The position numbers were made by a program, and so were the translations under genes. A stretch of 32,000 nucleotides of DNA from Fibrobacter succinogenes subsp. succinogenes S85. GTDB taxonomy: Bacteria > Fibrobacterota > Fibrobacteria > Fibrobacterales > Fibrobacteraceae. Every line of letters begins with the position of its first letter. Within the stretch, counting starts at the first letter, position 1. This document shows positions 1,822 through 30,371 of the stretch, piece by piece. The notes under the pieces are model-generated. The model saw nothing but the letters and a program-made list of their open reading frames with translations, made no database searches and was not told the DNA's origin. The stretch covers positions 3,480,001-3,512,000 of the forward strand of contig NC_017448.1 of the NCBI RefSeq assembly GCF_000146505.1. Reading direction: 5' to 3'.

Positions 1822-2943
1822 TTAACCCAAATCGATATCGGGTGAAACCTGTATCGTGAAGTCGGGGTAAAGCTCAGCTGCTTCGCTCTTGATGGTTTCG
1901 AGGGCTTCCTGGGCGTTTGCACCGAATTTGATGACCACGTCAAAGCGCATTTCCTTGGCTTCGATGTCCACGTAAAAACCGTGCATCTGGAGCGCCCAAT
2001 CGTGTGACTTGACTTTGTCTAAAATCGTGTCGCGGATTTTGGCGGATTCGTCGTTTTGGGTGTTGTAAGAGTAAACACCGATAGCGGTGAGGATGACGCC
2101 TGTTTCGCGGTAGACTTTCTTTTCGAGTTTGCGGGTGAGGGAATCCAGGTCGGCGACAGTCATGGAGTCGGGGAGTTCCACGTGCACGGAGGCGAGTTTC
2201 TTTTCGGGGCCGTAATCGTTAATGACGAGGTCGTATGCACCGTGGACGCCTTCTTCGCTGCGGATGAGGCTCTTGATTTGCTTGGTGAGTTCGTTGTCAT
2301 TTTTCTTGCCGAGCAAGTCGCTCACGGTGTCCTTCAACATTTCAAAGCCGGCCTTGATAATGAAAATGGAAATCAGAACGCCGACGTATGCTTCGAGCGA
2401 GAGACCCGTGAAAATGAAGATGAGTGCCGAGGCCAAAACGGAAAGGGAGAGGATGGCGTCAAAGAGCGCATCGGAGCCGGAGGCGATGAGTGAACCGGAA
2501 TTCACGCGCTCGCCTTGCGATTTCACGTAACGACCGAGGACGACTTTCACGACGACGGCGATGGCGATGATAACCAGTGAAACTGTGGAGTAATCGGCTT
2601 CTTCGGGGTGGATGATTTTCTTGACGGATTCCACGCAAGAGGTGATGCCCGCGTAAATCACAATGGAGGCGATGACCATGGCGGTCAGGTATTCAATGCG
2701 ACCGTAACCGAGCGGGTGCTTTTCGTTGGGCAATTTTCGCGAGAGCTTGTTGCCGACAATCGTGATGATGGACGAGAGTGCGTCCGAGAGGTTGTTCACG
2801 GCATCGAGAACGACGGCAATGGAGTTTGCCATAAGGCCGATAACCGCCTTGACGCTCGCGAGAATGACGTTGGTGACAATCCCGACAACGCTTGTCTTGA
2901 CGATGACCTTATTGCGGTTTTCTTCGTTGCAGTTCTTTGCCAT
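1822..2943 (-). CDS. Cation diffusion facilitator (CDF) family metal efflux transporter
   Basis: N-terminus 'SVVGIVTNVILASVKAVIGLMANSIAVVLDAVNNLSDALSS' and 'HPLGYGRIEYL' are typical of CDF/FieF-like TM domains. A C-terminal cytoplasmic domain is present. Confidence 0.88.
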   Translation of the reverse strand: MAKNCNEENRNKVIVKTSVVGIVTNVILASVKAVIGLMANSIAVVLDAVNNLSDALSSIITIVGNKLSRKLPNEKHPLGYGRIEYLTAMVIASIVIYAGITSCVESVKKIIHPEEADYSTVSLVIIAIAVVVKVVLGRYVKSQGERVNSGSLIASGSDALFDAILSLSVLASALIFIFTGLSLEAYVGVLISIFIIKAGFEMLKDTVSDLLGKKNDNELTKQIKSLIRSEEGVHGAYDLVINDYGPEKKLASVHVELPDSMTVADLDSLTRKLEKKVYRETGVILTAIGVYSYNTQNDESAKIRDTILDKVKSHDWALQMHGFYVDIEAKEMRFDVVIKFGANAQEALETIKSEAAELYPDFTIQVSPDIDLG

Positions 2944-3053
2944 ATGATTCTCCTACTAATTTTTCTTTGGATTATCGCTTTGCTCTAATCCCAAATGCTA
3001 ACCTCGGTCATGCCAAAACAAGTTTTGTCGCGACTCTCGGCTTTCGCATTTGT

Positions 3054-3067
3054 CGTCTCTCGTCTAT
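3054..3067. repeat. Second copy of the 14-mer CGTCTCTCGTCTAT, overlapping the ung stop codon
   Basis: Exact match to 1801-1814. Both copies lie at or just after the stop codon of a minus-strand gene. Confidence 0.75.
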
Positions 3068-3741
3068 TTTATGCTCCAGTCAATGGGTTCAAGTCCTTTG
3101 CTGACAAGGTAAGCGTTTGCTTTGCTGAAGTGCTTGCAACCGAAGAACCCGCGGTACGCCGAGAGCGGGCTCGGGTGCGGGGCGGTGAGAATCAGGTGAC
3201 CGCGATTGGGCGCGATGAGCACTTGTTTTTTGATGGCGAAGCTGCCCCAGAGCAAAAAGACGAGGTTCTCGCGGACTTGCGAAAGTCGCTGGATAATCGT
3301 GTCCGTGAACTGCTGCCAGCCAATGCCGGCGTGACTTGCCGCCATGTGGGCGCGCACCGTGAGCGAAGCGTTCAAAAGCAAAATTCCCTGGTGAGCCCAA
3401 CCTTCCAGGTTTCCGTGGGGTGGCGGTGTGATGCCGAGATCGTCGTGGAGTTCCTGGAAAATGTTGATGAGGGACGGCGGCGGCTCAATGCCAAATGGCA
3501 CCGAGAAGCAAAGCCCGTGAGCCTGGCCCGGATTGTGGTACGGGTCTTGTCCGATGATGACTGCCTTGACTTTATCGACGGGACAATAGTCGAGTGCTGC
3601 AAAAATCTGTGGTCCAGGAGGATACACCACGTGATGCTCCGCGTGTTCCTGCAAAAGTTTTGCCTTAATTTGCTTAAAATACGGCTGTTCAAACTGGTCG
3701 GCGAGCAGTTTTAGCCAAGATTCTTCAAGTTTGACGGACAT
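3064..3741 (-). CDS. ung: Uracil-DNA glycosylase (family 1)
   Basis: 'VIIGQDPYHNPGQAHGLCFSV' (water-activating loop) and 'HPSPLSA' (Leu-intercalation loop), with canonical ~225 aa length. Confidence 0.95.
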   Translation of the reverse strand: MSVKLEESWLKLLADQFEQPYFKQIKAKLLQEHAEHHVVYPPGPQIFAALDYCPVDKVKAVIIGQDPYHNPGQAHGLCFSVPFGIEPPPSLINIFQELHDDLGITPPPHGNLEGWAHQGILLLNASLTVRAHMAASHAGIGWQQFTDTIIQRLSQVRENLVFLLWGSFAIKKQVLIAPNRGHLILTAPHPSPLSAYRGFFGCKHFSKANAYLVSKGLEPIDWSIK

Positions 3742-3862
3742 AGGGCTATGGGGTTGTGAGGTAATGGGGTATGGGGTTAAAGTATGGCACCGTAGGTGCG
3801 ATTAAATATGCCCAGAGGGAGCCGCGGGCGACCGACCTCAAAGCGAGTGAATGCGAGCGTGC

Positions 3863-5197
3863 TCATAGCTCATTCCTCCTCGTAAGTATCGCGATTTTCT
3901 CGCCGTCGAGGCGTGTGTAGAATAGCGTTGCTGTGTTCTTGCCCTTGGGCTTGAGTCGCTTGATTTCTTGGTCGGGATCGACTTTGACGCCTCGCAGCTT
4001 GAGCGTGAGTTTTCCGATGTCGTGCGATTTGAGCATCGCGCGGACGGCGCCTGTCGAAATCTCGGACGATTCCAAAATCTCGTAGTTGGCGAAAGCGGGG
4101 GCGGGGAGCGGCTTTTCGCTTGTCACGTAAGCGATGCCCGGAGAAATCAGGTGCGTCGTTTCGTCGTGGGCGAGGGCGACCACTCCAAAGAGGTGGCTGC
4201 GGAGCAACACCGGCGCGGGTTCTGCGATGAACTTTGAAATCCCGCCGAGAGGCAAGTCGGATTCGCTGCTCGATGTGCGGTAAATGCGGTCGCGACCTTC
4301 GAGTTCGTAATTGTGGTCGTATTGCGATTGTTCGCTCTCGTTGCGGGCTTCGCGCTTCTCGTCGCGGGCGAACGTCCAGTTGGCAATTTCGTTCCCTGTT
4401 TTGTCGACCATTACAGCGCGGACATGGTCGGGATTCTTGGCGAGTTCGCCGAACAGCACCAAACATTCGCGGCAGTCCGTGCGCGAACCGATGTACAGGA
4501 TTTCTGTGCCACGCGGAATTTCGCAAATAGGGTAGCCGGGCGGAATTTTAGCCATGCCGCCTTTGTAATGCTTTGAAATCTCGATGACTTCTTCGAATGT
4601 AGGCGTAAGGTTGCGCAAGTCGCGCTGGTTCTCGCCTTCGATGGCTCGACGGGCAGGGTCAATCGTGAAATAATCGGCGTGTTGGGCGTCTGATGTTGCG
4701 TTGGAGTGCGCCGCGACTTCGCGGACATCGGCGAGGATGCTGTGTGCGTCGCTGGATTCTGGCGACGCACACAGCATCACGCTGCTGTTGTAGCGGTACA
4801 TCGCAAGGCGGTTTTCGTCAAGGTCCACACCGATGGCGGTCAGTTCCTTCGGCAAAAAGAAGGAATCCCCGCCCATGCCGCAGCAAAGGTCGTGAACGGT
4901 TTTGCCTACGGCTTCGGGTCCACTTGGCCACAAGTTTGCTTTCCAACGCCCGATATCTTGTGCGGTGCTCTGTTCCAACGCTAATTTGTCGCAAAGGAGG
5001 AATTCGGTGTTTTCGATTCCGAATTTTTCGCGAAATTTTGGCACGAGAGCCATATAGTCCATAATGGCGGCTCGTTCTTCGTTGCTGAATTCCTTGGCTA
5101 GCTGCGTCGAAACTTGCAATGCATCCAATTTTTTCTTGGTTGCAAGCTTGATGAAATCCTGAACTTTAGCCGAAGTGAGTAAATCCGCGTTGAACAT
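3863..5197 (-). CDS. Class I SAM-dependent methyltransferase with a THUMP-like C-terminal region
   Basis: SAM motif I-like 'VHDLCCGMGGDSFFL', with 'LEQSTAQDIGRWKANL' upstream as in the THUMP-like-domain methyltransferase family. The substrate is unknown. Confidence 0.6.
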   Translation of the reverse strand: MFNADLLTSAKVQDFIKLATKKKLDALQVSTQLAKEFSNEERAAIMDYMALVPKFREKFGIENTEFLLCDKLALEQSTAQDIGRWKANLWPSGPEAVGKTVHDLCCGMGGDSFFLPKELTAIGVDLDENRLAMYRYNSSVMLCASPESSDAHSILADVREVAAHSNATSDAQHADYFTIDPARRAIEGENQRDLRNLTPTFEEVIEISKHYKGGMAKIPPGYPICEIPRGTEILYIGSRTDCRECLVLFGELAKNPDHVRAVMVDKTGNEIANWTFARDEKREARNESEQSQYDHNYELEGRDRIYRTSSSESDLPLGGISKFIAEPAPVLLRSHLFGVVALAHDETTHLISPGIAYVTSEKPLPAPAFANYEILESSEISTGAVRAMLKSHDIGKLTLKLRGVKVDPDQEIKRLKPKGKNTATLFYTRLDGEKIAILTRRNEL

Positions 5198-5325: not shown

Positions 5326-6834
5326 ATGAAGTTTTTGAAAAATCTTGCGGCGTGCGTGTCTTGCGCTTCTGTTGCTTTGCTAATGCAATCTTGTGGTGAC
5401 GATACGGCTTTGTCGCCTGTTTATGCTTTAAGTTCTTCGTCTGCGCAGGAGTCGCTTGAATCATCATCGAGTGTGCAGGAGTCCTCGGCTCAGGAATCCT
5501 CGTCATCTGTTGAAAATTTATCGTCTTCTTGCCAAGATGGTGACTCCTCGTCTTCAGAAACATCTTTGTCGGCAGGGACTGAATCGTCTTCATCCGTGGC
5601 GACATCGTCTGAAATAGAACCGACGTCGTCTGAAACGTTGCAGAATTCTTCATCGTCCGAAGCTCAGTCATCGGTGGCTGAAGCATCGTCGTCTTCTAAT
5701 GCGTCGCAACCCTCCTCTGCAATAGAATCCTCGTCATCGCAAGCGCCCAGTTCATCTTCTGAAACTCCGAGTTCTTCTTCGGCCCAACCCATAAAAATAG
5801 ACTTCTACAACGGCGCCGACATCTCTGAAGTCCAGGAATACGAACGAAATAATACGAAGTTCTACGATGTCGATGGCAAAGAAAGCGATATCTTCACAAT
5901 CCTGAAAAATCACGGATTTAACTCCATTCGCTTGCGCACGTTTGTTTCGCCCAAGGCAAAGTACGGCTATGCGGCGAGCGGTTGCGGTCATGATTCCGAA
6001 GCGTATGGTGACAAAGACCACGTTGTTGCTTTTGCCAAGATAGTCAAAGCGGCGGGCATGGGGCTTCTCGTTGATATCCATTACAGCGATGTCTGGGCGG
6101 ATCCTGGCAAGCAGATTATCCCCGAACGCTGGCGTAACGTGAATAATGCCAATGCGATGGCGGATTCCGTGTACGCATACACCAAGGATTTGATGATTGC
6201 ACTTAAGAATGCCGGTGCAACGCCAGACATGGTGCAAGTTGGCAATGAAACGACTCCTGGCATCTTGATCCACAAGCCAAACAGCAAAACAGACTGTTGG
6301 GGAAATGGTGTCGATAAGGCTGCGACTTCTGTCAATGGCGATATGGGAACATCGGCGGGCAAGGCAAATGCCGCCAAGTATTTCAATGCAGGCATCAAGG
6401 CCGTCAAGGAAGTTTCGCCATCAACGAAAACAGTGCTCCACATCGAAAGTATCCGCAAAGAAGAAACAGTTAAATGGTGGATGGGCGTCATCTTTGATGA
6501 CTATAAAATCCCTGCTGACGTGATGGGCTTCTCCGCTTACACGGCATACGGCGACGGCACACCCGATAAGTGGAAGAATTTGTTCAATACGATTACGACA
6601 AAGTATTCAAAATTGGAATTTATCGTTGCGGAATACAACGGCGGCGATTCCGATAACCACTACAATTTTGATAAGTCCCGCCAAAAGACTCGTGAATCCG
6701 TCCGCGAAATGAACCGCTGGATCGGCTCGTTCTTCTGGGAACCGACAATCGGCGGTGCGTGGGGCTCGGGACTTTTTGACTGGCGTGGTAAAGATGTTTA
6801 CGCCAACGCCAAGGCTTTCGAAGAATTTTACTAA
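5326..6834 (+). CDS. Lipoprotein arabinogalactan endo-beta-1,4-galactanase (GH53) with a long Ser-rich linker
   Basis: Lipobox 'LLMQSC', ~130 aa of Ser-rich linker, then 'GADISEVQEYE...FNSIRLRTFV', 'VQVGNETTPG' (acid/base Glu) and 'FIVAEYN' (nucleophile Glu), all typical of GH53. Confidence 0.85.
   Translation: MKFLKNLAACVSCASVALLMQSCGDDTALSPVYALSSSSAQESLESSSSVQESSAQESSSSVENLSSSCQDGDSSSSETSLSAGTESSSSVATSSEIEPTSSETLQNSSSSEAQSSVAEASSSSNASQPSSAIESSSSQAPSSSSETPSSSSAQPIKIDFYNGADISEVQEYERNNTKFYDVDGKESDIFTILKNHGFNSIRLRTFVSPKAKYGYAASGCGHDSEAYGDKDHVVAFAKIVKAAGMGLLVDIHYSDVWADPGKQIIPERWRNVNNANAMADSVYAYTKDLMIALKNAGATPDMVQVGNETTPGILIHKPNSKTDCWGNGVDKAATSVNGDMGTSAGKANAAKYFNAGIKAVKEVSPSTKTVLHIESIRKEETVKWWMGVIFDDYKIPADVMGFSAYTAYGDGTPDKWKNLFNTITTKYSKLEFIVAEYNGGDSDNHYNFDKSRQKTRESVREMNRWIGSFFWEPTIGGAWGSGLFDWRGKDVYANAKAFEEFY
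6797..6834 (+). repeat. Direct repeat, left copy. This is the functional 3' end of the GH53 gene (VYANAKAFEEFY*)
   Basis: 33/38 nt identical to 9013-9050 by hand alignment. Confidence 0.9.
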
Positions 6835-6853
6835 AGCGAAGATTTACAAAACA

Positions 6854-6886
6854 AGCCTCTCCGAATTGGAGAGGCTGCATTTTTTA
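6854..6886 (+). terminator. Rho-independent terminator after the GH53 gene
   Basis: Stem agcctctcc / ggagaggct with loop gaatt, followed by gcatttttta. Confidence 0.75.
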
Positions 6887-7188
6887 TATCACAAATCAGA
6901 CTTTTCTCAATCAAGCAAACGCTCTTTCGTCAAGGTTTTTATTGAAGTTGAAAAACTACAAAATCGGCTATTGGCGTTTATTTTGCTTGGAATACAATAA
7001 GTCCTTCATTCGTTATCCGTACTATTTTCTATGATGTCTCTATCAAGTAGTTCAACAACTAGTTGGTATGTCATAACTTTTGCAATCTATGCAGATTGCA
7101 TTATCAATTACAAAGAATCTGTGTGAGTTTTTCTACAGTGCAGAATTTATCTATAACGATTCAAAATTAATTTATATATTCTGGCTGC

Positions 7189-8157
7189 CTATCCCTTTAT
7201 CTTTGGTGGTGTAATTAGTTCTTCTATCCATTTTATCGTTTTATTTGTTGCTTCTGTATCATGCTTAAACACATAGTAATATAGTGTACCTATTGCTAAC
7301 GCTGCGTCTCCGTGATTTAAGCTTCCTGCCATTTGGTGACCGATGATCGAACAAATTTTACCAAGAGCTTTGTCATCTAGTTCTGTGGTTGGAATTGATG
7401 AAACTTCATGAATTTTGGAATTCACTTCTGAACGGAACTTTTCGGTGGATTTATTCAATTCGTACAATATCGGAGTTAAAAGTCGGCGTGATGCTTTTCG
7501 GTTGTCATTTATGTAGTTATCACTAAATGATGGTCTACCGCGTTTTCGTGTTCCTTGCCATATTTCCGAAATGGTTTCACATAAATCATCTATAGTCAGC
7601 ATCCAGCATCCTCCTGTAGAGACCAAACGCTTCAAGTCTGTAATGCAAGCAGATATGGTTATATCATCATTCAGGATTATAGCGATAAATAAATCGCGTG
7701 TTCGTTCAGGGAGCGTTCCTAATTCTGGTTCGAGTAATGCCTGAACAGTGTCTTTATACTTGCTGCCAAATGATGTTTTGGATACCAAAGGGATTCCTGG
7801 ATTTTGTTTGTTTATTGTGAGGCGAATATTGTCTTTTTCCTTTGGGTTGAAATCGTTGCCATGATCCCAGCGCTTTAATAATTCTGTGCATATCAATTGT
7901 AGGGTTTCTATGGATAGTGTTTCTACTGGATCTGGTGTAATTTTTTGTATTTCTTTCAGCAATGCAGTTCTGTATGCTGATTTGTCTTTTTGTATTGCTT
8001 CAATGGCGTGTTCTATTAAAATTCTATCGCCAGAATGTTTCCAAAATACGAGTTTGCCAGTGCTAAAAATTAATGTTTTATACGCACTCCATGCTAGAAA
8101 ATATCCTATTGGTTTTATTACACACCAATCAAGAATAACCTTGAAATCTATATCCAT
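7189..8157 (-). CDS. Hypothetical protein (322 aa), hydrophobic N-terminus, no family recognised
   Basis: Long uninterrupted ORF in AT-rich DNA, where stops are frequent, 64 nt downstream of the 211-aa ORF on the same strand. Confidence 0.6.
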   Translation of the reverse strand: MDIDFKVILDWCVIKPIGYFLAWSAYKTLIFSTGKLVFWKHSGDRILIEHAIEAIQKDKSAYRTALLKEIQKITPDPVETLSIETLQLICTELLKRWDHGNDFNPKEKDNIRLTINKQNPGIPLVSKTSFGSKYKDTVQALLEPELGTLPERTRDLFIAIILNDDITISACITDLKRLVSTGGCWMLTIDDLCETISEIWQGTRKRGRPSFSDNYINDNRKASRRLLTPILYELNKSTEKFRSEVNSKIHEVSSIPTTELDDKALGKICSIIGHQMAGSLNHGDAALAIGTLYYYVFKHDTEATNKTIKWIEELITPPKIKG

Positions 8158-8221
8158 AGAATCAACACCTTTGTTGTAATTTTTTATGGAAATGTAACAA
8201 ACAATTAAAGGACTCTAACTC

Positions 8222-8857
8222 TTACATTTTATTATCTGCATCTTGAATAATATCCAATATACATTTGGTTACATTGTTGTTGGGTGGAAGTTTGCTGTTT
8301 CTGTATAAAAAATTGCATGTTTTTGTAGATTTCCCGCTTAATCTGTGCGGAAAATTGAGAACCGTATTATAAACTCGGTTGAAACACTTTGGCAAATGTT
8401 TATATCTCCATGGTCGCCCATTTATACCCCACATAATAACCTCAATCAGCAAGTTGTTCATCTCATAGGGTGTATACACTTCAATAGCTGGTTCCATTTG
8501 CTTGGATTTATAATCATTGAACCAAGACTTTGCTTCGTTAATGAAATCTGTATCATTTGGAAATGCATCCTTGCCTGTGGTGCCGTTCCATACAAGATGT
8601 AGTTCAAATAAGCACCATATATAATGTTCGCTAGTTAAAGTCGCCAAACTCAATGTGCTGCTTGATTGTCCGTTTGATATATGGAATCGTTCATTTAAAT
8701 TATACAGGGCCATTCTACATGCTTTCAATCGTTTTCGCTCTAATCTGGCTTCTTTACCAAAATACGCAAATATTTTAGTAAATGTGGCATATACAATTGA
8801 TGCGAGAAAACCACCAACGATACCGGTTACCCACGGGTCATTCCAATAATCAGTCAT
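8222..8857 (-). CDS. Hypothetical membrane-anchored protein (211 aa), no family recognised
   Basis: ATG preceded by ACGGAGTAAAAC (SD-like). One clear N-terminal TM helix (VTGIVGGFLASIVYATFTKIFAYF) followed by a Trp/Asn-rich soluble part. Confidence 0.6.
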   Translation of the reverse strand: MTDYWNDPWVTGIVGGFLASIVYATFTKIFAYFGKEARLERKRLKACRMALYNLNERFHISNGQSSSTLSLATLTSEHYIWCLFELHLVWNGTTGKDAFPNDTDFINEAKSWFNDYKSKQMEPAIEVYTPYEMNNLLIEVIMWGINGRPWRYKHLPKCFNRVYNTVLNFPHRLSGKSTKTCNFLYRNSKLPPNNNVTKCILDIIQDADNKM

Positions 8858-9012
8858 GTTTTACTCCGTCATTGCTTTGGGTTGTGTTAAATCAATATAA
8901 TCATAATCAAAAAATAGACAAAAAGATTGAGTTGCTTAATGAGATGAGGAGTGTCTTACATACATTAGATATTGATAATGTAGATTGGCTAAATTAAACT
9001 ATTGTAACGACC

Positions 9013-9050
9013 TTTACGCAAACGCCAAAGCCTTCGAAGAATTTTTCTAG
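9013..9050 (+). pseudogene. Displaced remnant of a GH53 gene 3' end (LYANAKAFEEFF*); right copy of the direct repeat
   Basis: In-frame translation gives ...DLYANAKAFEEFF-stop against ...DVYANAKAFEEFY-stop in the live gene. No ORF lies upstream of it. It ends 3 nt from the convergent kinase stop. Confidence 0.8.
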
Positions 9051-9053
9051 GAA

Positions 9054-9959
9054 CTAAACTTTCGCCGCCATTATGTCGGCAACATTTTCCAAAGAGATTC
9101 CCTTGAGGTTTTTTCGAAGCATGACATTTAAAATGAGATACTTTATGGGGCCTGGTGCAGGGATCATGTGGTATTTTATAGTCACAGCCATGGCTAAGTG
9201 AAGCCGAATCTTTTTCCCGAACATTTCGTCTGGTTGAATTGATCTGCCAAAATATGCGGCTGTAAATTCCACCCAGTAAGCGCGCAACTGTTGTTCTGTC
9301 ATGTGAAATATTTGTTGCACGCTCTTTTTGGTACAAAGAATGTTGGTAAACATGTACAGAAGGGCTATATCAAAAAGGTAATGCCCATAGCCGAAATCGC
9401 CCATGTCTATCCAGTAATTTTCACCGGTCTTGTTTGAATGTACGATATTGCCAGGCTGGAAATCGTACTGTAGGCAACCATGACTGTCAGGAACTAGCTC
9501 TATAGCGGCCTTCAAGATATCTTTGTACTTCTTGAATGTGAATAGCTTTGGAATGGCCTTGCGTATGGTTTCTTTATAGCACAAGAATTGGGTTGGGTCG
9601 CAGTTTATGCCATGAAATTTTTTCGCTTCTTCGGCGTGGATTTTTGCGATGCGGGGCAGGTCACTTGGATTGTCGTGAATCATCCTTGTGAACGAAATTT
9701 TTTCTTGCACTTTCTCATAGATTATGCCAAGGCGTCCCGATTGACTTTCTTCAACCAGTTCGATTGCTGCAGGAGTTTTAAAGCCGACGGAAGCAATCTT
9801 TCTAGAGTTTTCAAACTCTGCGATAATGTCTTCCTTGCGCCCCTCAGGTTTCATGAGCTTGAGCATAATGCTCGAATCTGTTTTTGAAAAGTAGCTTTCT
9901 CCGAAAGCCCCTTCCCCTTGCAATTCCCAGTCATTTAAATTAATCTGTTTGTAATTCAT
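9054..9959 (-). CDS. Aminoglycoside/choline-kinase-like phosphotransferase (APH family fold)
   Basis: Gly-rich loop 'GEGAFGESY', catalytic-loop-like 'LQYDFQPGNIV' and 'WIDMGDFGYG' (DxG metal-binding). The ATG at 9959 is preferred over the TTG at 9977. Confidence 0.7.
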   Translation of the reverse strand: MNYKQINLNDWELQGEGAFGESYFSKTDSSIMLKLMKPEGRKEDIIAEFENSRKIASVGFKTPAAIELVEESQSGRLGIIYEKVQEKISFTRMIHDNPSDLPRIAKIHAEEAKKFHGINCDPTQFLCYKETIRKAIPKLFTFKKYKDILKAAIELVPDSHGCLQYDFQPGNIVHSNKTGENYWIDMGDFGYGHYLFDIALLYMFTNILCTKKSVQQIFHMTEQQLRAYWVEFTAAYFGRSIQPDEMFGKKIRLHLAMAVTIKYHMIPAPGPIKYLILNVMLRKNLKGISLENVADIMAAKV

Positions 9960-9985
9960 AATTACGAATATAAACAAAAAATTGG

Positions 9986-14555: not shown

Positions 14556-14966
14556 TCAGTGATTGCTAATATCGCCGAAGCTGGCTTCTATGAAGAAAAT
14601 GTGAAATACTTGTTGTTCCTGTAATCCTACTAAAACGCGATTATCCCCGCTTGAACGGAGAATGTGCAAATCTTTTACGTCAGGTGTTAGACATTCGGCT
14701 TTTGCGGTATGTTTAATCTGACCAACAGGCATTTTTTCCATGCCCCATTGATGTCGCCCTGAAGCGCGGATTCCTTGCCAACCTATTGTCGAATATTTTT
14801 TGAAACGTCCAAGTAAATCGGTAAAAAATTTTGAGTTGCTGCACTTATTGTATGATTCTTCAACCAAATATTTGAATGAAAAAAGAACGTCGTTGCTGGA
14901 TACTGCTGTTCTAGAAACACTTGCGACGCCTTGTATTGGCGGAATAATTTTGAATTTATGTGTCAT
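14556..14966 (-). CDS. Candidate toxin partner (PanT-like position) of the Panacea antitoxin; family not recognised
   Basis: 136-aa ORF starting at an ATG 5 nt after the PanA-like stop, on the same strand. The longer track ORF (start 15053) would overlap the antitoxin by 82 nt. The function is inferred only from its position. Confidence 0.45.
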   Translation of the reverse strand: MTHKFKIIPPIQGVASVSRTAVSSNDVLFSFKYLVEESYNKCSNSKFFTDLLGRFKKYSTIGWQGIRASGRHQWGMEKMPVGQIKHTAKAECLTPDVKDLHILRSSGDNRVLVGLQEQQVFHIFFIEASFGDISNH

Positions 14967-14971
14967 TTCTT

Positions 14972-15409
14972 TTAGGCGAGTCTTGTTAAGAAGAATTTCT
15001 TCATTGATTCTTGGCTGATAATGTTGCCTTTGCCTGGAGATACTGAATTCCATGGCGGCTCGCTATGTGTCATTTCTACTAGTTTTACGGCTGAATACTG
15101 GTTGTATACATCAAAGACGTTGTTGAACAAAGTTGTTTCTTCTTCGTTTAGTTTGATGTCTATTTGGGTAGGAGGTTCAATTCCCTTTGCATCATATTTT
15201 GCATATTTTTCATAGACTTCAGGAACTACAGGACCGAACATCCATGCTTCGATATTTTCGTCAAATAAAGGAGTGTCAAATGCGGCCAAATGGAAACCCT
15301 GCTCGTAGTAAAGCATTTTTTGCAGCTTGAGATTGGACATCAATTCTTGATTTCTTTCTGCAGCTTTTGATAAAAGCAATTGAGCTATTTGTAACGCCTT
15401 GTATGCCAT
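14972..15409 (-). CDS. Panacea/DUF4065 domain protein (SocA/PanA-type antitoxin)
   Basis: 'NLKLQKMLYYEQGFHLAAFDTPLFDENIEAWMFGPVVPEVYEKY' closely matches the DUF4065 core (LKLQKLLYY.QGW.L...PLF.E.IEAW.YGPV.P.VY). Confidence 0.85.
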   Translation of the reverse strand: MAYKALQIAQLLLSKAAERNQELMSNLKLQKMLYYEQGFHLAAFDTPLFDENIEAWMFGPVVPEVYEKYAKYDAKGIEPPTQIDIKLNEEETTLFNNVFDVYNQYSAVKLVEMTHSEPPWNSVSPGKGNIISQESMKKFFLTRLA

Positions 15410-28994: not shown

Positions 28995-29034
28995 TTACGT
29001 GAATATCTTCAAAATAAGCTTGATATTCACGTAA
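28995..29034. repeat. Perfect 13-bp inverted repeat TTACGTGAATATC / GATATTCACGTAA (14-nt spacer)
   Basis: Read directly. The left arm sits inside a near-palindrome, GATATTACGTGAATATC (28991-29007). Confidence 0.85.
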
Positions 29035-29056
29035 AATTTTGATGTTGTATGTAGTT

Positions 29057-29086
29057 AAAATCCGCTTGAATGCGGATTTTTGCTTT
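29057..29086 (+). terminator. Rho-independent terminator downstream of the second CE12 gene
   Basis: aaaatccgc-ttgaat-gcggatttt followed by tgcttt. Confidence 0.6.
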
Positions 29087-29180
29087 AAAATGAAAAATTT
29101 TGAGCTTTTAAAGCTTAAAACACTGTCTAAAAGGTGGCGAAAGATACTTTTTGCTGAATTTTTAATAAGTTTGTCTGAAT

Positions 29181-29224
29181 TTTTACGTGAGAAAATCTGA
29201 TAATTCGATATTTTTCACGTAAAA
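29181..29224. repeat. Second inverted repeat with the same core: TTTTACGTGAGAAAAT / ATTTTTCACGTAAAA
   Basis: 15 of 16 positions are complementary, with a 12-nt spacer. It shares the TTACGTGA/TCACGTAA core with 28995-29034. Confidence 0.8.
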
Positions 29225-29277
29225 AATGAACTTTTTTAGATTTTTCAAAAAAAATAACACATTTTTTATAACATAAT

Positions 29278-29321
29278 GTGGACATAAAATTTGCAAAACT
29301 GTGGACAATAATGTATATTAC
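29278..29321 (+). promoter_or_regulatory. Two TGTGGACA boxes (22 bp apart) followed by a TATATTA box, upstream of the TIGR02147-PL1 genes
   Basis: aaTGTGGACAtaaaatttgcaaaacTGTGGACAataatgTATATTAc. Same heptamer as upstream of the PL11 gene. Confidence 0.4.
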
Positions 29322-29429
29322 TATTAGTAACTCTTTCTAATAAAAGGAGATGTCCGATTAAATCGGGCATGACAATCACAAGTTCAGACCTCAAAGGGGC
29401 GAACCCCCGACCTCATAGTTTATAGCCTA

Positions 29430-30371
29430 ATGATCAATATTTTTGAATATCTGAATTACCGCGAATTTTTGAAAGACGCCTACGAAGAGCGCCATGCAAG
29501 CGATTGGCGTTTTAGCCATCGTTTTATTGCCGAAAAAGCGGGCTTCGATTCATCGATGTTCAATAAGATCTTGCAGGGCAAGCGAAACCTGACCGACCGC
29601 ATTGTCGATGTTTTTGCGTCTATCTTTTGCAGTGACGAACGCGAAAAAGCGTACTTTGCAAACATGGTCGCTTTTAACCAGGCGAAAACGCATACTGAAA
29701 GTCGCCAGTTCTTGGAAAAGCTTGTCGCGTCCAAGGAATGCAAGGTGGAAAACTTGGCGAAGGACCAGTTTGAATATTTTGACCATTGGTACCATGCGGT
29801 TGTCCGTGAACTTGTGACTTTTTACCCGTATGTGGGTGACGATGCCGCCTTGGGCCTTATGGTGCGCCCGCCGATTTCTGCAAGCCAGGTCAAGTCTTCG
29901 ATTGCGCTTTTGGAACGCTTGTCGATGATCAAGAAAAACGAGCAAACAGGATTTTATGAACAAACGCAAGGTCTTGTTTCGAGTGGCTTTGAATCGTACA
30001 ATACGGCGGTGAACGCTTACATCCAACAGAATCTGGACGTGGCGCAAACGGCGATGGACCGCTTTGATCGCGGTGAACGCAATCTTTCGACGCTTGCGTT
30101 TGGCTGTGACGAAGCGACTTATAAAGAACTTGTGGAAATGGTGCGCCGCTTCCGTCGCGAAGTGCTTGCTAAAGTAGGTGCGTGTCAAAAGCCGAATCGC
30201 GTTTTCCAGCTCGGCATGCAGCTTTTTCCGCTTTCGGACCCGTATCCGCCACCGCAGAGGCGTGGGCGCAAACGCCGCATTCGCGGTGCCGAAATACAGA
30301 ATGCTTCTCGTGAAATCACGGATGAATCTCGCGAACCTGCCGAAGTTCAAGGGGGCAATCATGAAAACTAG
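29430..30371 (+). CDS. TIGR02147/DUF4423 family protein (Fibrobacter paralogous family; HTH-like N-terminus)
   Basis: 'YREFLKDAYEERHASDWRFSHRFIAEKAGFDSSMFNKILQGKRNLT' matches the family N-terminus as remembered. 313 aa with a basic C-terminal tail. Confidence 0.75.
   Translation: MINIFEYLNYREFLKDAYEERHASDWRFSHRFIAEKAGFDSSMFNKILQGKRNLTDRIVDVFASIFCSDEREKAYFANMVAFNQAKTHTESRQFLEKLVASKECKVENLAKDQFEYFDHWYHAVVRELVTFYPYVGDDAALGLMVRPPISASQVKSSIALLERLSMIKKNEQTGFYEQTQGLVSSGFESYNTAVNAYIQQNLDVAQTAMDRFDRGERNLSTLAFGCDEATYKELVEMVRRFRREVLAKVGACQKPNRVFQLGMQLFPLSDPYPPPQRRGRKRRIRGAEIQNASREITDESREPAEVQGGNHEN

Follow-up and report, generated by a model that had tools for sequence, protein, structure and literature searches.

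Does a short AT-rich islet in the chromosome of Fibrobacter succinogenes subsp. succinogenes S85 carry a two-gene system, or two genes that happen to lie side by side? The islet, whose bounds we take as about 6941-9003, lies within a stretch of 32,000 nucleotides (nt) of contig NC_017448.1 (positions 3,480,001 to 3,512,000, forward strand; hereafter the window, in whose numbering positions are given), which aligns to CP001792.1 at ~3.03-3.05 Mb. A sequence-only reading of the window had described two open reading frames (ORFs) of the islet, here called A and B, as an orphan cassette of a membrane-anchored protein and a partner, perhaps an anti-phage or addiction module, and had set co-occurrence of the pair elsewhere as a test beforehand. 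Such co-occurrence was not found in any diverged homolog context. As far as the present data reach, A and B are independent orphan genes, and a conserved two-gene cassette is not supported.

The A-B pair was seen solely in S85 and in 96-98% identical strains, at one and the same locus. We sampled about eight independent contexts for A and five for B, several of them on short contigs (loci are numbered from L001). No B homolog lay beside any A homolog in L005-8, L019, L020-25, L045, or L049. The gene is preceded by an unrelated 213-amino-acid anchored protein and followed by BrnT/BrnA in L005-7, has an IS1595 transposase tail directly after it in L008, lies within a phage-like contig in L019, follows a 401-amino-acid ORF beside PD-T4-4_A in L020-22, sits beside PDC-S15 and PDC-M29A/B in L023-25, has glycosyltransferase-like genes on one side and an IS1595 element on the other in L045, and is found among unknown genes with no PHROG match in L049. 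Likewise, no A homolog was found upstream of any B homolog in L001, L026/27, L046-48, or L051. The 136-200 nt upstream of B in L001 and L026/27 held no A-like sequence and no transposase lay nearby; B of L046-48 follows a GT34-like transferase and overlaps an intact IS1595 transposase gene; and the distant homolog of L051/52, P0019, lies between an IS607-type serine recombinase and TnpB. The 215-amino-acid gene before the L046 B homolog was considered as a cryptic A and rejected, being the GT34-like transferase.

Both ORFs are present on the minus strand where they had been described. Gene A (FSU_3028 / Fisuc_2463; 8857..8222) encodes 211 amino acids identical to FSU_3028, gene B (FSU_3027 / Fisuc_2462; 8157..7189) encodes 322 amino acids, both start with ATG, and a spacer of 64 nt (8158..8221, minus strand) separates them. 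Shine-Dalgarno-like sequences, claimed earlier and confirmed by direct reading, lie 6-9 nt 5' of the two starts (GGAG before A and, within the spacer, AAGGTG before B). Within the islet, A and B are the only ORFs of at least 100 amino acids; no Rfam families were found in 6500-9500 and no tRNA genes in the window. GC content is 0.33-0.38 over 7001-9000 versus 0.50-0.59 in the flanks and most of the window. At the base composition of the islet, stop codons are expected at 0.071 per codon, which gives a probability of remaining open of 1.7e-7 for 211 codons and 4.7e-11 for 322 codons, and among 2000 shuffles of the islet the longest stop-free run had a median of 82 and a maximum of 214 codons, compared with 341 observed. 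Thus, chance ORFs are excluded. Furthermore, comparison of A with its 71%-identical homolog in L005 yielded a dN of 0.158, a dS of 1.37, and a dN/dS of 0.115; A is under purifying selection.

Both genes appear in a published RNA-seq differential-expression table (Supplementary Dataset 1, sheet 'pH5.65 DE gene list'; Wu et al. 2017, PMC5442110): Fisuc_2463 (A; 3041939..3041304) has a log2 fold change of 1.305 (adjusted P 2.2e-6) and Fisuc_2462 (B; 3041239..3040271) one of 1.345 (adjusted P 7.4e-11). Their presence in this table shows that both are transcribed and move together. A and B are therefore real, intact, transcribed genes, as the sequence-only reading had thought probable. That the two are mobile-DNA remnants in decay, without a function, is an explanation to which we give hardly any weight and which is largely refuted already: a decayed transposase does adjoin them, A is broken in one strain, and both families are tiny, but the low dN/dS of A, the full-length B homologs that keep conserved motifs, the ORF lengths far past chance, and the detectable and regulated transcription of both genes all argue against it.

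The terminator scan detected no terminator between A and B, and the nearest minus-strand site past B is a hairpin at 6876-6854. We infer that the two genes are co-transcribed in S85, on a transcript that would start at a promoter upstream of A and end at this hairpin. Could they then form a coupled system in which A is the membrane component and B its partner, serving anti-phage defence or addiction? Their common orientation and close spacing without a terminator would suit such a system, as would their near-identical log2 fold changes in the same contrast, the flanking genes being absent from the gene lists examined, and the location of A homologs in defence islands. However, the pair is confined to one locus of S85 and its near-identical relatives, diverged homologs of A are always found without B and those of B without A, A is frameshifted next to an intact B in L002, and neither protein has a PADLOC match at E<=1, so that we consider a coupled system quite improbable. 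The lesion in L002 is a 40-nt frameshifting deletion (about 372-405) in the anchor-coding region of A, for which an assembly error is possible. A type II toxin-antitoxin or addiction module in particular was rejected on the single occurrence of the genes elsewhere (B without A in L001, L026, and L046) and on this L002 allele; no toxin or antitoxin domain was found in A or B with Pfam, NCBIfam, or PADLOC. The sequence-only reading had also pointed out a superficial likeness to Kiwa and rightly stopped short of assigning it. The two loci are alike in that a small membrane protein is followed by a larger protein, at roughly similar sizes. They differ in that A has one transmembrane helix versus four in KwaA and no KwaA match at E<=1 (PADLOC), that B, which is predicted to be all-helical, has, like its six homologs, no DUF4868/KwaB match (Pfam, PADLOC), and that the A-B pair is not conserved outside S85-like strains. 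Kiwa was thus rejected on all three of its defining features, a four-helix KwaA, a DUF4868 KwaB, and a conserved pair.

What are the two proteins? In the product of A (8222..8857, minus strand), the N-terminal helix is a signal anchor, flanked by acidic sequence on its N side and basic sequence on its C side, and behind it comes a helical domain that bears the motif SWGxNGRPW. As had been predicted, a Kyte-Doolittle scan found a single N-terminal hydrophobic helix in A (residues 13-31, KD19 1.65), and the scan of A plus all 11 homologs gave one N-terminal hydrophobic segment in each (KD19 1.6-2.65), so that this helix is kept in all family members. The charges flanking the helix are -2 on the N side and +4 on the C side (...KEARLERKRLK...), which by the positive-inside rule would place the C-terminal helical domain in the cytoplasm. 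A would thus sit in the inner membrane by way of this helix, the domain facing the cytoplasm. The family comprises 13 clusters among 5.8 billion proteins, its members are about 170-230 amino acids long, and R41, C47, R57, E85, N91, W112, E139, and G147 are invariant in addition to the SWGxNGRPW motif. An AlphaFold2 (AF2) model of A, built from a 3-sequence alignment, is all-helical and of low confidence (predicted local distance difference test, pLDDT, 55).

The B family is smaller still, with seven representatives (among 1.84 billion), three of which are full-length and 41-44% identical to B. Its invariant blocks are ELLKRWDH, NPGIP, GGxWxxTxDD, KFR, and AGSL. The hydrophobic N-terminus that had been ascribed to B is there, but in the Kyte-Doolittle scan it stays under the usual transmembrane threshold and is broken by the invariant Lys27; this stretch may be amphipathic rather than membrane-spanning, and it is not established that B is a membrane protein. 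B likewise contains the basic patch GTRKRGRPSF, but this patch is not conserved across homologs. The AF2 model of B, again from a 3-sequence alignment, is all-helical and of low confidence (pLDDT 57). A relationship between A and B themselves was rejected, as hhalign of the two profiles returned a probability of 0.2%.

The earlier remark that no known family was recognisable in either protein was borne out by the libraries. Searches of Pfam, NCBIfam, PADLOC, and PHROGs with A and B gave chance-level matches only; Pfam gave no match to any member of either family, six B homologs included, and PADLOC-DB 2.0 gave 0 families at E<=1 for A and for B. Profile searches of the PDB returned nothing under E 0.04 for either protein, and Foldseek searches of the two models against PDB and BFVD nothing under E 0.07. 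No match was found in IMG/VR for A, B, or the B-like protein, in JGI metagenomes for B, or in GenBank phages and PLSDB plasmids for either family.

The homolog contexts are more informative about where the genes travel, and both families move between Fibrobacter chromosomes and what appear to be large Fibrobacter phages. The phage-like contigs come from gut and rumen metagenomes. Two of them, L019 and L046, carry terminase-like genes that match phrog_5989 (E 2.5e-14 and 1.4e-4) and, by tblastn, large-phage terminases at about 25% identity; L046 derives from a 105-kb contig. Together with L045 they have glycosyltransferase-like genes in common beside A or B, and the three are related large phage-like genomes that may represent an undescribed Fibrobacter phage group. 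We also observed that these three contigs hold clusters of glycosyltransferase-like, acetyltransferase, and Stealth genes, that the GC content of some genes is 0.30-0.33, and that there are almost no PHROG matches. The A homologs of L019 and L045 and the B homolog of L046-48 lie in glycosyltransferase and insertion-sequence (IS) regions, outside the phage core modules. The neighbours of the chromosomal A homologs (GalE, Smr, Wzc, BrnT) share 90%-identity clusters with proteins of Fibrobacter sp.

Defence genes accompany A homologs in three Fibrobacter contexts, namely PD-T4-4_A (4e-42), PDC-S15 (2e-73), PDC-M29 (PDC-M29A/B, 4e-139 and 4e-47), and BrnTA. The recurrence of A in defence islands and in phage accessory regions suggests a role in phage-host conflict; judged by neighbourhood only, an anti-phage role for A is possible. 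The neighbours of the S85 islet are GH53, APH, and GH18 genes, not defence genes, and B homologs are likewise without defence neighbours. The defence-island surroundings for which the sequence-only reading had proposed to look were thus seen for A homologs in these three contexts but not for the S85 locus or for B. The phage-like contigs suggest a different explanation, that A and B act on the cell envelope or in glycan synthesis, for example as membrane-associated helpers of phage glycosyltransferases in surface modification or seroconversion: A or B edges a glycosyltransferase, acetyltransferase, or Stealth cluster in 3/3 related phage-like contigs, and chromosomal A lies 4-6 kb from GalE in L020 and L023, with Wzc also present in L023. 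However, no glycosyltransferase is found near the genes in S85, L005, L001, or L026, neither protein resembles glycan-pathway families, and moron regions (phage accessory regions) often pool unrelated genes. We therefore regard an envelope or glycan role as improbable.

A and B had been taken for the sole cargo of the islet, which does not hold, since it also contains the 3' fragment of an IS1595-family DDE transposase pseudogene (7006..7214, plus strand; spanning codons 286-351 or so and interrupted by in-frame stops and a frameshift). This remnant of roughly 70 codons lies in the stretch between a CobW remnant and B (given as 350 nt), is convergent with B, and overlaps the last 26 nt of B tail to tail. 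By tblastn, transposase residues 286-320 align to 7006-7116 and residues 326-346 to 7134-7196, across the stops and the frameshift; by blastn, the IS of L046 matches window 7036-7236 at 66.7% over 201 nt (E 9e-9). The remnant frame ends ...WLPIPLSLVV-stop versus ...RPPIPLPLVA-stop in the intact L046 transposase, which carries PF12762 (DDE_Tnp_IS1595). The IS of L045, with no B gene beside it, independently matches window 7027-7077. L045 and L046 carry the same 1220-bp IS (94% identity), which excludes A and B and sits directly after A in L045 and directly after B in L046. The transposase cluster includes one member from a Fibrobacter metagenome-assembled genome (MAG).

The 26-nt antisense overlap between the ends of B and the transposase gene (window 7189-7214 and L046 8965-8990) is dual-coding: it encodes the last 8 codons of the transposase (PIPLPLVA-stop) opposite the end of B (PPKAKE-stop / PPKIKG-stop). 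The same overlap is present in S85 and L046, even though their B proteins share only about 42% identity. The final 25 nt of the L045 and L046 elements show six differences, each synonymous for the transposase, and in L046 these six spell the conserved C-terminus of B (PPKAKE-stop) on the opposite strand. The overlap may go back to an ancient linkage of the two genes, or to an IS that inserts preferentially beside sequences resembling its own end. A distant B-family member lies within a transposable element: on the phage-like contig L051 (7311-10493), the AT-rich B-like gene P0019 (GC 0.38 versus 0.50 around) is wedged inside an IS607-type element, between tnpA, encoding the serine recombinase, and tnpB, and another tnpB with 68% identity is found 1.5 kb beyond.

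Some IS1595-family subgroups carry passenger genes (ISfinder), and B, perhaps with A, might be an IS accessory or passenger with a function in transposition, or the 3' end of B might be a preferred IS1595 target. The shared overlap at such low B identity, the IS1595 transposase tails that immediately follow A homologs in L045 and L008, and the placement of P0019 between IS607-type TnpA and TnpB all point in this direction. The S85 locus resembles the IS1595 family in having the 3' part of the transposase against B, with intact copies beside homologs in L045 and L046, but it differs in holding a fragment only, and the intact 1220-bp element comes without A or B. Moreover, transposase genes are lacking around the B homologs of L001 and L026/27, no enclosing pair of inverted repeats was found for B, and AT-rich moron regions are generic landing sites for insertion sequences. 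A function of B or A in transposition, or a role of the B end as target, thus appears unlikely, if somewhat less so than a coupled system or a glycan role.

How did the islet reach this site? The left flank is the GH53 galactanase gene (5326..6834, plus strand), whose 3' end carries the left copy of a 46-nt imperfect direct repeat (6788..6833, plus strand). This copy is the GH53 3' end in use (...GKDVYANAKAFEEFY-stop), the segment 6788-6833 reading ...KDVYANAKAFEEFY-stop. The right copy (9004..9049, plus strand) is an orphaned ancestral GH53 3' end (...GNDLYANAKAFEEFF-stop), abutted by the stop of an APH-like gene (9054..9977) that is convergent with the GH53 end. The two copies are 85% identical; read in the GH53 frame, they differ mostly by synonymous or conservative changes. 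Between the left copy and the islet lies a module (6834-6940) common to other Fibrobacter loci, with 6709-6940 aligning to L033 and 6846-6935 to L032. It contains the intrinsic-terminator hairpin described above, which the scan scored as bidirectional (6854..6876, both strands), and the 3'-end remnant of a CobW-like GTPase gene (6911..6940, minus strand; ...LDERAFA-stop), which has 30-nt matches in L028, L031, and L035; in L002/L003 the remnant sequence runs on into a complete gene (...KCLDERAYA-stop).

GH53 loci were surveyed in 16 other genomes labelled Fibrobacter, mostly MAGs, and the islet with A and B was present in none of them (0/16). Thus A and B were horizontally acquired, as had been proposed. 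Most of the surveyed genomes have the order GH53, CobW, Fur-like, GH18, UvrA-like, and GH53 adjoins GH18 directly in L034, L036, and L039. The empty site of L028 has GH53 (...KDLYANAKAFEEFF-stop) directly convergent with an APH-like gene (GAACTAAAC...), and its DNA at this junction is the same as that of window 9004-9058. This match identifies 9004-9049 as the original GH53 3' end and 6788-6833 as the copy that arrived with the insertion. On the metagenomic contigs L002-L004, where the islet is 96-98% identical to that of S85, about 150 bp at 85% identity lie on either side of it, comprising the GH53 3' end, the terminator, and the CobW 3' end, and the far copy leads into an intact CobW gene. 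S85 differs from these strains in its L028-like right junction with the APH-like gene and is thus a further recombinant.

The surroundings are variable in other ways. The APH-like gene itself (9054-9977) occurs in 1/16 GH53 loci, that of L028, where it occupies the position that CobW has in most of the others. L032, from a MAG, has a different AT-rich orphan directly after GH53 (5647-6564, minus strand; 305 amino acids, GC 0.29, hydrophobic N-terminus), and its presence at the same spot marks the GH53 3' flank as a recurrent landing site. L043, from yet another Fibrobacter MAG, carries three AT-rich genes (2467-4972; 525, 131, and 183 amino acids; GC 0.38-0.41) between the Fur-like and UvrA-like genes.

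No integrase or recombinase was found in the islet, neither A nor B matches a recombinase family, and a search for repeats around the S85 islet found neither terminal inverted repeats nor a target-site duplication. There is likewise no short identical target duplication, the repeat being diverged host sequence, and site-specific integration was rejected on these grounds. Integration of e14 or phage 21 at icd of Escherichia coli duplicates the diverged 3' end of the target gene. The S85 site is like these in that the diverged 3' end of a target gene is duplicated and the working end comes from the insert, and differs from them in lacking an integrase or recombinase and in a repeat that, in the sister strains, reaches the terminator and the CobW 3' end. 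This extension fits homologous or homology-facilitated recombination better than a site-specific event. The simplest reading is that the islet entered by Campbell-type or homology-facilitated recombination via a diverged copy of the intergenic region, at a position that varies across the genus.

Taken together, the islet would be a piece of mobile DNA related to phages that came to rest at a recombination hot spot just downstream of the GH53 gene of the S85 lineage, carrying two functionally independent accessory genes and a decayed IS1595-family transposase tail. B and the IS tail would have been acquired from a phage-like source, and the fragment would have integrated by homologous or homology-facilitated rather than site-specific recombination. 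A might act alone in phage-host conflict, as a moron of the superinfection-exclusion or abortive-infection type, and B might be a helical moron of the same class, soluble or bound peripherally to the membrane, that travels beside transposase genes, both suggestions being of low certainty. Phage superinfection-exclusion proteins with a single N-terminal anchor include the lactococcal Sie2009-type, T4 Sp, and HK97 gp15. These offer the closest analogy, a functional and not a homologous one: A is small with one N-terminal transmembrane helix, and, like phage morons, A and B are AT-rich relative to the host, occur in phage accessory regions and bacterial variable islets, and form single-gene units with variable neighbours. 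They differ from phage exclusion proteins in that neither A nor B resembles them in sequence or fold, that the domain of A is predicted to be cytoplasmic, and that no prophage surrounds the S85 genes.

Several observations weigh against this picture. The putative moron function of A and B meets poor AF2 models (pLDDT 57 and 55) and null Foldseek searches. Neither family occurs in GenBank phages, PLSDB, or IMG/VR, so that 'phage' here means metagenomic contigs with weak to moderate terminase matches, and the placement of A in defence islands is guilt by association. A and B lie beside phage glycosyltransferase clusters, which possibly indicates an envelope or glycan role instead. The independent contexts number only about eight for A and five for B, several on short contigs, and the alike RNA-seq fold changes with no terminator between the genes fit a functional operon in S85. 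Weighing these points, we put the overall picture of two independent phage-derived accessory (moron) genes, with A membrane-anchored and both probably engaged in phage-host conflict, at an even balance between right and wrong, and would name a specific activity for A or B with far less assurance. The further-reaching proposition, that A and B are the first members of two new families of single-gene phage-host-conflict effectors (exclusion, abortive infection, or anti-defence) exchanged between Fibrobacter and an undescribed group of its large phages, and that the B family has a real functional or targeting link with transposons, strikes us as rather unlikely.

Two further features of the window were seen away from the islet. 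An AT-rich patch at 14556-15409 (minus strand; GC 0.37-0.39) encodes a 145-amino-acid protein with a SocA_Panacea domain (14972..15409), overlapped by a 165-amino-acid ORF (14556..15053) that has no Pfam match, and the pair looks like a Panacea-type toxin-antitoxin system. The lowest GC content of the window (0.306) is found at 29001-29500, just upstream of an ORF at 29430..30371.

S85 is a model rumen cellulose degrader, and its strain-specific AT-rich islet would be explained as mobile, phage-related DNA with an IS scar, being neither a defence operon nor part of the surrounding carbohydrate-active gene cluster. Such islets of mobile-element-derived orphan genes are familiar, and this fresh instance is of modest interest as such. 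For the mining of genomic islands it carries the lesson that adjacency in one genome does not make a cassette, as the co-occurrence test pointed clearly to independence. The locus also suggests that genes pass between Fibrobacter chromosomes and barely sampled large phage-like genomes, and A and B, two compact, expressed, and conserved orphan proteins, are single-gene candidates for phage exclusion.

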